Part shown: positions 6,741-48,987 of the stretch, one piece after another
Layout: each line of letters starts with the position of its first letter
Position numbering within the stretch: the stretch's first letter is position 1
Source: an uncultured Chlamydiae bacterium
GTDB lineage: Bacteria; Chlamydiota; Chlamydiia; Chlamydiales; Parachlamydiaceae
NCBI GenBank assembly: GCA_963754655.1
Contig: CAVWGN010000001.1
Location: 160,001 to 224,000, forward strand
Length of the DNA stretch: 64,000 bases
Reading direction: 5' to 3'
The notes under the pieces: generated by a model
Told to the model about the DNA's origin: nothing
Databases searched by the model: none
Seen by the model: only the letters and a program-made list of their open reading frames with translations
Made by a program: the position numbers and the translations under genes

Positions 6741-6858
6741 TTTTAATCCTAAAACATTGATACACGTCTCTAGGTTAACTTGAGCGCTTTTAAACCGTTT
6801 TCGTTTCTAAAATAAATGCTTATTAGATCACCTTACGCAAGCGAGGCTAAAGAATCAA

Positions 6859-7386
6859 TGATATCCTTTAAATAACCAAATAGCTTGATTTGTTTAATAG
6901 CCTGAACGGTTTCAAAGAAAATAGCCCAGGGCATCGCGCTGGGTTAGATTAGCCCTCGTCATGTAGTCTGAAGGACTACAAGAAAATCATCTCATCCCCA
7001 ACATGTTTTCATTAAACGCAATTCTCCATTTGTTTTTATCCAGTTAGAAGATCCTTTCTTAATTTCCTGAATAAGCTTACTCAATGGCAAAGTACATGGT
7101 AAAGAAACAAAAGGTGAGTCAAAAAGAATACCATAAAACAATGACATTTCAAAATGATTACTGCGGATTTTAAAAAATATGAAGTGGCGTTTGATGAAAG
7201 CGTGTTTGGGATAGATGATTCTCTTGTAGTCCTTCAGACTACATGACGAGGGCACATCTAACCCAGGGCGATGCCCTGGGCTATTTTATTTGAAGCCCTT
7301 CAGGCTATTAAACAAATCAAGCTATTTGGTTATTTAAGGTTATCACTGAGCCCTGGGCTATTTTATTTAAAGCCTTTCAGGCTATT
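6859..7386. repeat. Long REP-like palindrome (~160-bp arms 6859-7019 and 7187-7345) plus an extra partial unit at 7350-7386
   Basis: The arms are near-perfect reverse complements and contain gtagtccttcagactac, acccagggcgatgccctgggct and gaagcccttcaggct hairpins. Confidence 0.9.
6992..7215. pseudogene. tnpA: IS200/IS605-family Y1 transposase (tnpA/RAYT-like) remnants on both strands inside the palindrome
   Basis: Minus strand: CTLPLSKLIQEIKKGSSNWIK. Plus strand with frameshifts: QKEYHKTMTFQ..LRILKKYEVAFDE.RVWD. Both are typical TnpA segments. Confidence 0.7.
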
Positions 7387-9580
7387 GTTCTAGAGGAGTC
7401 ACTTTCAAACCTACAGGTTCAGATTCATTACCTGCAGCATCAACAGAAACAATAAAATAAGTGTAAAAAGGTTCTCGTTTGCGTATAGGGTCAATAAATT
7501 CTAACTCATGCTTAGAGGGAATTGTGGCAATGAGTGTTTTTAATTCCGAATCGCGATAAATGTGATAAGCAACAGGAATCTCCCCTTCTGTTGGAGGTTT
7601 CCATCTTAAAATGTTGACCCAGTTAATTTCATTTCCTATTGCATTGTTTATTTGAAATCCCGTGACTAGTGTAGGAGGTAAAATGGCTAAATGGGTCATC
7701 TGCAGTAAAGGTGCTGAAGTGGACGGATTAAAGTTCTCATCGCCAGAATAAATTGCAATAATTCGATGTTCACCTTTTTTTAGCTCTTTAAAAACTGTCA
7801 AAGTAGCCTGATGACTATCAGTTAATTTTAAGGGATCTCCTACCTTTTCTTCATTAATTTGAAATTGAATGGTTCCTGTCAGTTTTTTATGGGCAGCAAC
7901 AGTGGCTGTAAAAGTGACAGATTGGCCAAGAATAGAGGGATTAACTGAAGAAACCACGGTTGTAGAAGTGTCGGCTTTATCGATTTGTTGGGTCAACACC
8001 ACATCAGAAGGACTAAAATTTTCACTCCCTAAATAATTAGCTTCTATTTGATGAGTTCCTGCATTTAAATGCTGGATAATGACAGAAACTTGGCCGTTTT
8101 TAAGAGAGCGCGCTTCTTCAAAATTTTTTCCATCAATTTTGAACTGAACAAGACCTGTGGGCTGCAATCCCTCAGCTGTCACCTTAGCCGTAATCTTTAC
8201 AGGACTGCCATACGTAGACGGATTTTTAGAAGAAGTTAATCCCGTCGTTTTAGCTTTTTTAACCTGTTGCATCAAAGAGTCTGCAGAAGGGCTAAAATTT
8301 TCATTGCCGCTGTATTCAGCTTCTATTTGATGAGAACCTGCTGTCAATTGATTAAGGGTAACGGAAACTTGTCCACTTCTTGAGAGAGATTGAATGCTGC
8401 CGAATTCTTTTCCATCCACTCTGAATCGAATCCATCCCTGGGGACGCGCAGTTTCAGAAGTCACTTTTGCTGTCATTCTCACTGCTATCCCATATGTCGA
8501 GGGATTTTCAGAAGAGATTAAATCCGTCTCGGTTTTAGCTTGTCCGATCATTTGGGTTAACAAACTAGTCGAAGGATCAAAATTTTTATTTCCTAGATAA
8601 TGAGCTTCAATATTGTAAGAGCCGCTAGGTAAGTCTTTGAGAATAATTATGGTTTGTCCATTGCTATCTAAAGATAAAGGATTACCATAATGAAGTTCAT
8701 TCATCATCAATTGAACCATGCCATCGGGTATTCCAGCTGAAGAAGTAACTTTTACCGTGAAGGTCATGGGTTGACCAAATAAAGAAGGATTCTCCGAAGA
8801 GGTTAATTGTGTCTTCGTGGGTCCTCTGTCAACTTGTTGCGTAAGTTGAATTTGCGAGGCTTGAAAATTCTCATTTCCTTGATAAATTGCCGTTATCGTA
8901 TGTGCTCCAACAGAAATATCCGCTGTTGAAAAAATGGCTTTTCCACTTGTATCAAGCTCACCTGTTGCGAAAGAAGATCCATCAATGAAGAGTTCGACTA
9001 ATCCGTTAGGTGTTGCCTTAGCAGGTGCCTCTGCATTAACGCCCACTGTGAATTTGACTAATTGATTCAACACAGAAGAGTTAGGTCCGGCTTTAATCAC
9101 ACAAGATGTTTTAGCTGGATACACCCAAAGATTCCAATAATCTCTTGAACTTTCAAAGATCTCATCTCCCGAATAAATTGCGGTAATAGAGTGTTGCTTT
9201 AAATGAGTAGGAGAAAGATTCGAAATGGTAAATTTTGTTTCTCCATTGGCAAGAGGCTGAGTAGAAGCGAGCACTTGATCAACTTCAAATTGAATCGTCC
9301 CTGTAGGGATGGATGCCGGAAGACGGGTGGGAACAACATGGGCAAAAAAAACAACGGGTTGGCTATAAATTGAGCTTTCTTCAGAAGAGCTTGTGATAAC
9401 AGTTTGAGTAGGCCTTGATCCTTCTTGAGGAACTGAAAAAACCTCTTGATTCTCTTCAACCTTTTTTGGCTCTTTTAAAAGATTTTGCAAGTCAGAATTT
9501 CCAACCAAGCTCTGAAAGAATGCAAAGAAGCAAAACAATAATAAGAAACAAGTTAACATTCTTAATGGCTTGAGTCTCAT
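7382..9580 (-). CDS. Secreted Ig-like (Big_3-type) repeat protein with C-terminal FN3-like domain
   Basis: Signal peptide; about 5-6 repeats of SSxNPSxxGQxVTFTAxV...PxGxVQFxIDG...GxHxIxAxYSGxxNFxPS. Confidence 0.85.
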   Translation of the reverse strand: MRLKPLRMLTCFLLLFCFFAFFQSLVGNSDLQNLLKEPKKVEENQEVFSVPQEGSRPTQTVITSSSEESSIYSQPVVFFAHVVPTRLPASIPTGTIQFEVDQVLASTQPLANGETKFTISNLSPTHLKQHSITAIYSGDEIFESSRDYWNLWVYPAKTSCVIKAGPNSSVLNQLVKFTVGVNAEAPAKATPNGLVELFIDGSSFATGELDTSGKAIFSTADISVGAHTITAIYQGNENFQASQIQLTQQVDRGPTKTQLTSSENPSLFGQPMTFTVKVTSSAGIPDGMVQLMMNELHYGNPLSLDSNGQTIIILKDLPSGSYNIEAHYLGNKNFDPSTSLLTQMIGQAKTETDLISSENPSTYGIAVRMTAKVTSETARPQGWIRFRVDGKEFGSIQSLSRSGQVSVTLNQLTAGSHQIEAEYSGNENFSPSADSLMQQVKKAKTTGLTSSKNPSTYGSPVKITAKVTAEGLQPTGLVQFKIDGKNFEEARSLKNGQVSVIIQHLNAGTHQIEANYLGSENFSPSDVVLTQQIDKADTSTTVVSSVNPSILGQSVTFTATVAAHKKLTGTIQFQINEEKVGDPLKLTDSHQATLTVFKELKKGEHRIIAIYSGDENFNPSTSAPLLQMTHLAILPPTLVTGFQINNAIGNEINWVNILRWKPPTEGEIPVAYHIYRDSELKTLIATIPSKHELEFIDPIRKREPFYTYFIVSVDAAGNESEPVGLKVTPLEQ

Positions 9581-37984: not shown

Positions 37985-39090
37985 CTAGGGAGCTTTGACG
38001 CACCTTGAAGGACTAAAATCTTTTAGGTACGCTCCCTAGTACTCAACCACATTAGTTTTGTGTATTTAGATTGCTTCAAATCCCCGGGGTTGAATTGGCG
38101 TAAGTGGGTCAATATTAGCAATATGGACCCACTTACGCCAATTCAACCCCGGGTAGGGTGTTCATTTTGTGCAAAAAATGAGCTTTATTTTTCACAATAA
38201 TTGGCATAGTTGAATTGAAAGTCGCATGTTTATGCCGTCCTTTCAGGACTCGATGTCTTTTTGATAGAACCCAGGCCTCCGCTTCGCTGCGACCTGGGCT
38301 GTAACATGACGGCCCTTCAGGCCTTAACAAGAGATCTTTAAGTCCCTCTTCTATAGTCCCTAAATCATCTTTTTGTTAAGGCCTGAAGGGCCGTCATGTT
38401 ACAGCCCAGGTCGCAGCGAAGCGGAGGCCTGGGTTCTATCAAAAAGACATCGAGTCCTGAAAGGACGGCATAAACATGCGACTTTCAATTCAACTATGCC
38501 AATTATTGTGAAAAATAAAGCTCATTTTTTGCACAAAATGAACACCCTACCCGGGACTTAACAAAGAACTGTTTTTGGGCTTGATATTCTTCGTGTCAAT
38601 TTAACAACACCCGCCTGTAAAAGGCTTTAGAGGCATATTTCCCGAAAATGATGCAAAAAACCATCAAGCCCAAAACAGTTCTTTGTTAAGTCCCGGCATA
38701 TGGCTAGGTAATCGGAATTTTTTATCTTTGTTTTTGCAATGTTGCTTGATCCATATCCTTTCCCTCAGCGACGAGCGGCGTTAGCCGCGCATGGATAGTA
38801 GCCGTGGGTGTAGGCGCAAGCCGAAACCCACGGTTACCCAAAAAACAAATTTGAGCCACGTTAGTGGCGTAGCATTCGTTTAAATAAACATTGCTCCACA
38901 ATCACATTTCCTACGCCACTAACGTGGCTTCATTTTTTTTACCATACACCGTGGGTTCCGGCTTGCGCCTACACCCACGGCTACTATCCATGCGCGGCTA
39001 ACGCCGCTTGAGCGACAATTTTAGCTTCTGGAGTTTGCCAGAAGCATTTCGTTCCTAGCCTATGGCCGGGACTTAACAAAGAACTGTTTT
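37985..39090. repeat. Chain of abutting palindromic mini-elements joined through CTAG/CCGG
   Basis: Units 37985-38039, 38083-38153 (28-bp perfect arms), 38148-38555 (183-bp perfect arms), 38551-38696, 38693-39069 (inner REP palindrome 38774-39008), and half-unit 39066-39090. Confidence 0.92.
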
Positions 39091-48589: not shown

Positions 48590-48987
48590 TTTTGACTAAA
48601 AACATTTGACACTTGCAGCCCTTCAGGCTGCATGACACAACTCACTCAACCCCAGGGCGTTGCCCTGGGCTTTTGCTCTTACAGCCCTTCAGGCTGAGGC
48701 AGGGAATCTCAGCTTGGCATAAGTCCTTCAGGCTCTAAGCAATGACTGTAGGTTATAATAAGCCCTTCAGCTGATGCAGTGAATCTCAGCGTGCCATAAG
48801 TCCTTCAGGCTCTAGCAGTGACTCTTAGCTTGCAATATTAGACCTGCTGTCTAAAAGTGTACACTATGAGATTTCGTGCATCAGCCTGAAGGGCTGTAAG
48901 TGCAATAGCTCAGGGCAACGCCCTGGGGTTGAGCAGGTTGTGTCATGCAGCCTGAAGGGCTGCAAGTGTCAAATATGTTAGTCAAAA
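48590..48987. repeat. Long REP-like palindrome (~120-bp arms) with tandem REP units in the loop
   Basis: gcagcccttcaggctgc..cccagggcgttgccctgggct..cagcccttcaggctg mirrored; ~65-bp duplication 48683-48747 / 48761-48823. Confidence 0.9.

Follow-up and report, generated by a model that had tools for sequence, protein, structure and literature searches.

The window, i.e. the whole stretch of 64,000 nucleotides analysed here, corresponds to C1:160001-224000 of a 3.16-Mb genome assembled in 2 contigs. It contains a long palindrome located between two convergent genes, a ligase gene and a minus-strand gene coding for an Ig-like repeat protein (7382-9580). The inverted-repeat arms (6868-6992 and 7213-7337) are 125 nt long each, 94% complementary and separated by 220 nt. 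The predicted single-stranded DNA fold of 6859-7386 reaches -171.1 kcal/mol against a mean of -51.1 for shuffled sequences (z = -24), and none of 100 shuffles folded as well. Its full extent proved to be wider than first described, from 6828 at the outer edge of the left arm to 7349 at that of the right arm. The parts of the locus are collected in Table 1.

Table 1. Parts of the palindromic locus in window coordinates (RC, reverse complement)
Feature	Position	Strand	Remark
Left arm, RC copy of the tnpA 3'-flank module	6828..6992	-	alignment to intact element
Left-arm outer terminus TCACCTTACGCAAGCGAGG	6828-6846	-	
Left-arm extension	between outer terminus and hairpin 3'	-	
Left-arm hairpin 3'	about 6899-6913	-	weakened
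Left-arm hairpin 2'	6925-6943	-	one stem mismatch
Left-arm hairpin 1'	6963-6979	-	
Remnant of the last ~15 tnpA codons (...AFNENMLGMR, stop)	6987..7022	-	ends at old internal-deletion joint near 7022/7023
tnpA remnant, about aa 57-89 (VSLPCTLPLSKLIQEIKKGSSNWIKTNGE)	7023..7118	-	HUH would lie upstream, missing
Head-to-head joint of two truncated copies, ...GGTAAAGAAACAAAAGGTGAG / TCAAAAAGAA...	7116..7121		about 3 nt microhomology
tnpA remnant, about aa 118-150 (SQKEYHKTMTFQNDYCGF, stop, K..KKYEVAFDE..)	7119..7218	+	stop and frameshifts; catalytic Tyr position lost
Right arm, 3'-flank module	7213..7349	+	cut short, without last ~30 nt and terminus
Right-arm hairpin 1	7226-7242	+	
Right-arm hairpin 2	7262-7280	+	
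Right-arm hairpin 3	7294-7306	+	followed by extension to 7349
Extra partial unit (second half of hairpin 2 and hairpin 3)	7350..7386	+	95% direct repeat of 7273-7309
Chimeric 87-aa ORF, from right arm across joint into left remnant	6992..7255	-	without HUH and catalytic Tyr

The stop codon of the Ig-like gene (7382-7384) is supplied by the partial repeat unit at 7350-7386. In a congener (G002), the ends of the orthologous ligase and Ig-like genes are separated by 12 nt only and enclose no repeat. Because only these 12 nt are present there, the 641-nt intergenic block is specific to the lineage studied here. The 3' end of the congener Ig-like gene is also different, and the congener locus does not therefore represent a clean empty site. 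At the protein level, the C-terminal domain of the Ig-like protein differs from that of the congener ortholog, which points to a replacement of the 3' end of this gene by the rearrangement.

The preliminary description had read the innermost part of both arms as the TnpA C-terminus. Six-frame translation compared with the intact gene agrees with that reading: the plus strand encodes ...KKYEVAFDESVFGID and the minus strand ...RIAFNENMLGMR followed by a stop, the corresponding end of intact tnpA being ...KKYEIEFDEKYVWD followed by a stop. The same description had assigned different transposase pieces to the two strands of the loop. When the genome was searched by tblastn with the intact 150-aa paralog, Y1 transposase matches were indeed obtained on both strands. 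The minus strand 7108->7013 corresponds to aa 60-91 (81% identity, E 1.8e-10). The plus strand carries a piece of about aa 118-150, detected as 7099-7176 (aa 112-137, 50% identity) and 7172-7198 (aa 137-145, 78% identity). At the level of sequence comparison, the homology of this relic to tnpA is confirmed to lie far beyond chance. The window copy lacks both the HUH motif and the catalytic Tyr: the left piece begins past the HUH and is devoid of the Tyr region, and the right piece begins past the catalytic Tyr position. The 87-aa ORF scores 15.2 bits with Pfam Y1_Tnp (cut-off 23), and the Y1 identity of the window pieces therefore rests on the comparison with the paralog rather than on the family model. 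This ORF is most likely not a gene, and its counterpart at c412 contains three in-frame stops.

For the comparison of copies, positions were numbered along the intact element (L-module 1-100, tnpA 101-553, R-module 554-about 650). At the DNA level, the window locus reads on this scale as the reverse complement of 616->507, the reverse complement of 366->268 and, beyond the joint, 451->616. Both arms thus consist of the 3' (R) module and the last tnpA codons. The centre is formed by two opposed 5'-truncated tnpA pieces that meet head to head near 7118/7119. The R-module contains three hairpins, hp1 (GTAGTC..GACTAC), hp2 (CCCAGGGC..GCCCTGGG) and hp3 (AGCC..GGCT), followed by an extension and a fixed terminus, ...CCTCGCTTGCGTAAGGTGA. 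The left arm reaches this terminus at 6828; the right arm is broken off at 7349 and followed by the 37-nt partial repeat.

In the genome, Y1_Tnp matches seven full-length genes. Two shorter matches also exceed the Pfam cut-off, and three weak ones, the window locus among them, fall short of it. The closest intact copy, a 150-aa tnpA, lies at C1:2544233-2544685; a twin at 2542103-2542555 is 98% identical to it. Apart from this one tandem pair, the tnpA paralogs of the genome are 37-48% identical, and most of the six diverged paralogs inspected have inverted flanks of their own. The two intact copies, 2.1 kb apart, belong to a same-strand cluster at C1:2539369-2548293 that also holds one 5' fragment and two 3' fragments and looks like a tandemly duplicated segment. 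The intact paralog scores 87.8 bits with Pfam Y1_Tnp (PF01797, cut-off 23), 63.8 bits with NCBIfam transpos_IS200 (cut-off 55) and 21.1 bits with NCBIfam REP_Tyr_transpos (NF047646, cut-off 80). Its best solved relatives are ISHp608 TnpA and ISDra2 TnpA. HUH and Tyr are aligned with theirs, the HUH being NHVH and KYIQNQ falling on ISHp608 Y127. The protein displays the motifs N/DHVH, WQ and YIQNQKEHH over 150 aa and a conserved C-terminal tail. It fits TnpA-Y1 subclass 1.2, an assignment made by motif comparison. The published description of subclass 1.2 gives DH[IV]H, WQ, YIKNQKEHH, a median length of about 148 aa and a C-terminal tail, together with a low copy number and diverged paralogs in each genome (Quentin 2018, PMC6006769).

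In its native form, the 150-aa tnpA lies between mirror-image modules in the order hp3'-hp2'-hp1', tnpA, hp1-hp2-hp3. In the intact copy of this genome, comparison of the upstream module with the reverse-complemented downstream type gives ~73% identity. The two flanks match almost perfectly as inverted repeats, over >100 nt, in the nearest relatives from other Parachlamydiaceae genomes. Relatives of tnpA were confirmed 465 times in species genomes, and the analysis was carried out on the best 80 of the 465, which span Chlamydiae, Planctomycetes, Verrucomicrobia, Acidobacteria and Bacteroidota. Among the 78 of these best 80 loci with both flanks, 51 have an exact inverted repeat of at least 12 nt between their 220-nt flanks. 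Twelve downstream flanks from Chlamydiae, Planctomycetes and Acidobacteria were aligned; they share three hairpins, each at a constant distance downstream of the stop codon, with compensatory changes in 9 of the 17 base pairs. Intact homologs, here and in other genomes, thus carry the same downstream hairpins, and the link of the repeat family to an IS200-type enzyme, put forward in the preliminary description, is upheld by the hairpins that flank intact Y1 homologs. Palindromic flanks as such need no special birth event, because intact genes already possess mirror-image modules. The only feature of the window locus that calls for an explanation is the reverse-complemented coding sequence beside the left arm. 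A native gene with its two flanks was considered as a simple account of the palindrome and ruled out, since the left arm runs into reverse-complemented tnpA coding sequence.

The order of events can be read from the other copies. The left piece has lost element positions about 361-505 (aa about 89-135). This deletion joint and the neighbouring substitutions are identical at six loci, i.e. the window, C1:3099xxx, 412xxx, 428xxx, 453xxx and 1469xxx. Three of these copies (c428, c453 and c1469) lack the palindrome and preserve more of the 5' sequence, c428 being continuous right through to the upstream module; the internal deletion is therefore older than the head-to-head join. The right piece retains element 451-505 (aa 118-135), a segment that the left-half deletion removed, and the two halves thus descend from two different copies. 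Both halves share a 1-nt deletion in the last codons and so belong to the same decayed sub-lineage. The head-to-head joint is common to the window, C1:3099244-3099650 (88% identical) and C1:412913-413213 (84%), the latter with an additional 30-nt central deletion. These three loci are 84-88% identical to one another. As they share the joint, the structure was probably made once and then copied. The left-half deletion joint is also present in a fourth copy, C1:1898084-1898316, whose central gap is larger and whose distal arms differ; it may not simply derive from the window type. Outside the termini, the flanks of the composite copies are unrelated. Pairwise identities of left and right halves, taken within and between the four composites, are 82-93%, star-like (at 85-93%) and without clustering, and they support neither in-situ duplication, nor two donors, nor concerted evolution of the arms. 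The 94% figure for the arms is driven by their distal part, conserved in every copy. Internal-deletion derivatives of the tnpA element arose through at least three independent deletions.

Hairpin 2 is a frequent breakpoint among the copies. Breakpoints within it (GCCCWGGGC) were recorded at C1:453134-453641, 412468-413213, 3099217-3100388 and 1214611-1215214. Hairpin 2 also hosts a ~400-nt palindromic insert, CTAGGGTG...CACCCTAG, holding a mirror pair of another paralog's modules, as well as several ISs and two other sequences, ..CGGGACTTAACA.. and ..TGTCATTACCC...

Taken as a whole, the locus is best explained, with moderate confidence, as a non-coding relic (6828-7349) of two different decayed Y1 copies that spread as a MITE-like unit. 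The structure was probably made once from these two copies and then disseminated as a non-autonomous element. A deleted copy and a non-deleted decayed copy would have been fused by one illegitimate head-to-head join at about 3 nt of microhomology, a figure that is our own reading of the sequences. The join would most likely have occurred after the two copies had come to lie in inverted orientation, the unstable centre of the resulting palindrome then being deleted. The product would have carried two inverted outer termini, which is why the fused R-arms could have been moved in trans, in the manner of a MITE, by a target-duplicating transposase. The window copy would later have lost its right terminus and its mobility. 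On this reading, it is an old, rearranged and now immobile relic, formed elsewhere or earlier and then propagated. The hairpin modules are putative REP-like recognition DNA of the transposase family. Both the processing of the hairpins by the enzyme and the mover of the palindromic derivatives are inferred.

The outer termini are informative about the mode of spread. The terminus TCACCTTACGCAAGCGAGG occurs 47 times in the genome at up to 3 mismatches. Direct repeats of 7-9 nt adjoin the outer side of five of nine inverted terminus pairs; the other four have none of at least 7 nt. As a control, none of 72 non-cognate pairings showed a direct repeat of 5 nt or more. The composite copy at C1:3099217-3100388 has both termini (TCACCTTACG...) and the 7-nt direct repeat TGATCCT. 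The window copy retains only one terminus. Target duplications of this kind are a mark of cut-and-paste (DDE-type) transposition and not of Y1 enzymes. An autonomous element with TCACC... termini was not identified in the genome, where the larger members merely hold nested, unrelated ISs.

A composite formed once could instead owe its presence at three or four loci to homologous recombination, gene conversion or a segmental duplication. The genome offers about 195 dispersed copies and fragments of the unit as possible substrates, hairpin 2 is a frequent breakpoint, and four of the nine terminus pairs are devoid of direct repeats. Against it stand a copy bounded by both termini and a TGATCCT direct repeat, and flanks that are unrelated beyond the termini. 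Spread by recombination appears unlikely, though it may apply to loci other than the C1:3099217-3100388 copy.

A role in the host is compatible with the relic origin. The block may now act as a two-way terminator or an RNA-stabilising hairpin, as its position between the convergent ligase and Ig-like genes and its very strong predicted fold would permit. Hairpin 2 and the T-run that follows it score as terminator-like on the plus strand (7262-7280); on the minus strand, this role would fall to the mirror copy. The congener, however, manages with a 12-nt spacer, and the 2 terminator-like sites compare weakly with the 0.7 expected in the scan, so that this role is doubtful.

The preliminary description had proposed an inverted duplication of one tnpA 3' end together with its flank, followed by asymmetric deletions; at this site, such a duplication would have come about by fold-back or template switch. 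The recognition of Y1 remnants and of two opposed 3' ends stands; simple inverted duplication with asymmetric deletions in place is not supported. The opposed 3' ends with their 94% complementary arms, the 1-nt deletion that assigns both halves to one decayed sub-lineage and the pairwise identities of the halves are all compatible with this proposal. It is disfavoured by the left-half deletion joint, identical in three non-palindromic copies with more 5' sequence, and by a right half that keeps aa 118-135, lost in that deletion. The central joint, moreover, recurs at three loci with unrelated outer flanks, the block is absent from the congener, and mirror flanks are native to intact genes. Duplication in place is thus improbable, and the fusion of two decayed copies followed by spread is retained. 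Finally, a palindrome created by mis-joined reads has a negligible probability: long palindromes are error-prone in assembly, but here three diverged copies (84-88%) share internal joints in a 2-contig, 3.16-Mb assembly. A search of sequencing runs gave one soil-metagenome run, containing 0.07 of the query words, and no RNA run.

The locus had also been thought to suggest how the doublets of this repeat family form. About 81 units in the genome cover hp1-hp2, and their neighbouring pairs comprise nine with hp1 outside against two with hp1 inside, the latter being only the window locus and the deleted element c428. The common doublets thus have the opposite topology, and the window locus was discarded as a model for them. 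Palindromic doublets of 328 nt with hp1 outside lie at C1:740704-741031, 784304-784631, 981798-982111, 1034514-1034839 and 2634220-2634539. The last tnpA codons form their outer ends, TTGGGATGAGATG..., and their first 10 nt, TGGGATGAGA, are the termini of a 1865-nt hAT-like IS at C1:69947-71811. This nested IS is flanked on both sides by GCCCAGGGC. Since the doublets share the termini of the hAT-like IS and abut CCNGGG-type sequence, they may be mobilised by its transposase. The window holds two further doublets (48612-48966 and 38270-38433), a diverged (75-76%) pair of the tnpA-relic unit and a mirror pair of matches to the RNA family model RF01687 (36.4 bits) from an abundant second module family.

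RF01687 describes the Acido-Lenti-1 motif, listed as a probable sRNA of Acidobacteria and Lentisphaerae (Weinberg 2010, PMC2864571). The 46-nt model is covered over its whole length by hairpin 2, the linker and hairpin 3 of the module, and hairpin 1 lies outside it. The window copies score 22.7 bits (7262-7306) and 11.1 bits (6914-6943), below the gathering threshold of 37; membership of the window in RF01687 was therefore rejected and the match taken as an architectural resemblance only. In the genome, at least 150 RF01687 matches were found, 11 of them over the threshold and none of these being the window copies. A match of the abundant 36.4-bit type lies directly downstream of paralog C (C1:395654-396268, 48% identical). 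From this position, the largest module family of the genome may belong to paralog C and not to the paralog related to the window relic. An intrinsic-terminator-like score is obtained for hairpin 2 with the CTATTTTATTT after it (window 7262-7290, mirror 6914-6943), which could be one reason why the motif was first read as RNA.

The association of motif and gene extends to other phyla. RF01687 reached the threshold beside tnpA homologs in 7 of 40 loci searched and E<=1 in 12 of the 40. Threshold-level matches flank tnpA homologs in Planctomycetes and Acidobacteria; matches flank them likewise in L095, which reaches the threshold, L106 and L052. They are often arranged as mirror images about 50-100 nt from tnpA, on the minus strand upstream and on the plus strand downstream. 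In a sample of 61 genomes of the chlamydial order, 13 had gene and motif, 4 the gene only, 1 the motif only and 43 neither. Among 41 genomes of the acidobacterial order, the motif was present in all 9 gene-positive genomes (3-104 matches each); 8 had the motif only (seven with 1-3 matches, one with 28) and 24 neither. Fisher's exact test for co-occurrence gave p = 5e-9 (chlamydial) and p = 7e-5 (acidobacterial), values that overstate the evidence, given the relatedness of the genomes and the absence of any correction for phylogeny and genome size. The acidobacterial genome with 28 matches (G076) yielded no tnpA relative at E<=1e-20; either its repeats are orphans or the query with one protein overlooked the gene.

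These data support the moderately novel claim that subclass 1.2 Y1 transposases have REP-like three-hairpin partners that correspond to the Acido-Lenti-1 motif. A wider reading is proposed tentatively and as a whole, at a little less than even confidence. Acido-Lenti-1 would not primarily be an RNA, it would be the REP-like ssDNA module of subclass 1.2. The copies would form a graded series from intact gene to internally deleted copy, head-to-head composite and composites with shorter centres, and the 3' modules would have been captured as MITE-like ends moved by unrelated transposases that make target duplications. In the literature covered by the search, to which subscription papers were external, no link of subclass 1.2 or Acido-Lenti-1 to flanking repeats was found, and a search of the supplement found no passage on Acido-Lenti-1 in Additional file 1 of Weinberg 2010.

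Alone, the locus is an ordinary dead transposase relic of a common sort; what gives it value is that it connects a repeat family to its enzyme. This chlamydial genome contains hundreds of copies of the three-hairpin module, which entered the catalogues in 2010 as an RNA motif without known function and which appears here as the native flank of a Y1 subclass classed as repeat-free. If this holds, it accounts for an orphan Rfam family and widens REP/RAYT-type biology to Chlamydiae, Planctomycetes, Verrucomicrobia and Acidobacteria, and the proposal can be tested by assays of hairpin binding and cleavage. In addition, the copies that are partly deleted or rearranged provide dated intermediates for the origin of non-autonomous palindromic elements from the flanks of transposase genes.

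The hairpin 2-linker-hairpin 3 arrangement is alike in the module and in Acido-Lenti-1, catalogued in its published listing as a probable sRNA with neither function nor enzyme link. Compared with the IS200/IS605 family (IS608, ISDra2), the fold family of the transposase, the hairpins by the gene ends and the occurrence of internal-deletion derivatives are alike. Classical members, however, differ between their left and right hairpins and have neither long inverted arms nor a target duplication, whereas the flanks here are mirror images and the outer termini have 7-9-nt direct repeats. The classical combination of no terminal inverted repeats, no target duplication and near-identical copies is thus not the one found here. 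TIRtrons and their TIRYT transposases are similar in that Y1 genes with long inverted repeats form dispersed families; the GGGGWSAS motif given for TIRYTs was not seen here (Di Nocera 2013, PMC3733652). In the classification of Quentin 2018 (PMC6006769), the published TIRYTs are subclasses 2.1, 2.2 and 2.5, not 1.2.

With subclass 1.2 as described in that work, the enzyme shares the motifs, the Y-motif being YIQNQKEHH here and YIKNQKEHH in the published form, the length (150 aa against a median of 148) and the presence of few, diverged copies per genome. The subclass entry reads 'REP: no', without typical terminal hairpins and with members mostly in Cyanobacteria and Bacteroidetes; the automatic REP search described there targeted canonical GT[AG]G-foot REPs (Quentin 2018, PMC6006769). 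In contrast to this REP-less description, the present copy and the 80 relatives are accompanied by mirror-image hairpin modules, amplified genome-wide.

The arrangement can also be compared with the REPtron, RAYT-REP and REPIN systems (Nunvar 2010; Bertels and Rainey 2011). The module has three hairpins over about 100 nt, where a REP has one over 20-40 nt. A REPIN consists of two inverted REPs with a short spacer, forms one hairpin and is mobilised by a single-copy RAYT; the doublets here are also inverted but measure 0.3-0.6 kb, some being bounded by target duplications. The enzyme itself departs from class-2 RAYTs, with a Y-motif of the Y---Q type (YIQNQ) instead of Y---NP and a REP_Tyr_transpos score of 21.1 against a cut-off of 80. 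The REPtron or RAYT-REP system was reportedly also treated by Ton-Hoang in 2012. As in REPtrons in the published accounts, a Y1 gene lies between inverted hairpin repeats dispersed in tens to hundreds of copies, the repeats often occur as inverted doublets, and diverged paralogs each have their own flank type. Overall, the hallmark of a REPtron-like arrangement, a gene flanked by an inverted and dispersed hairpin repeat, is found here.
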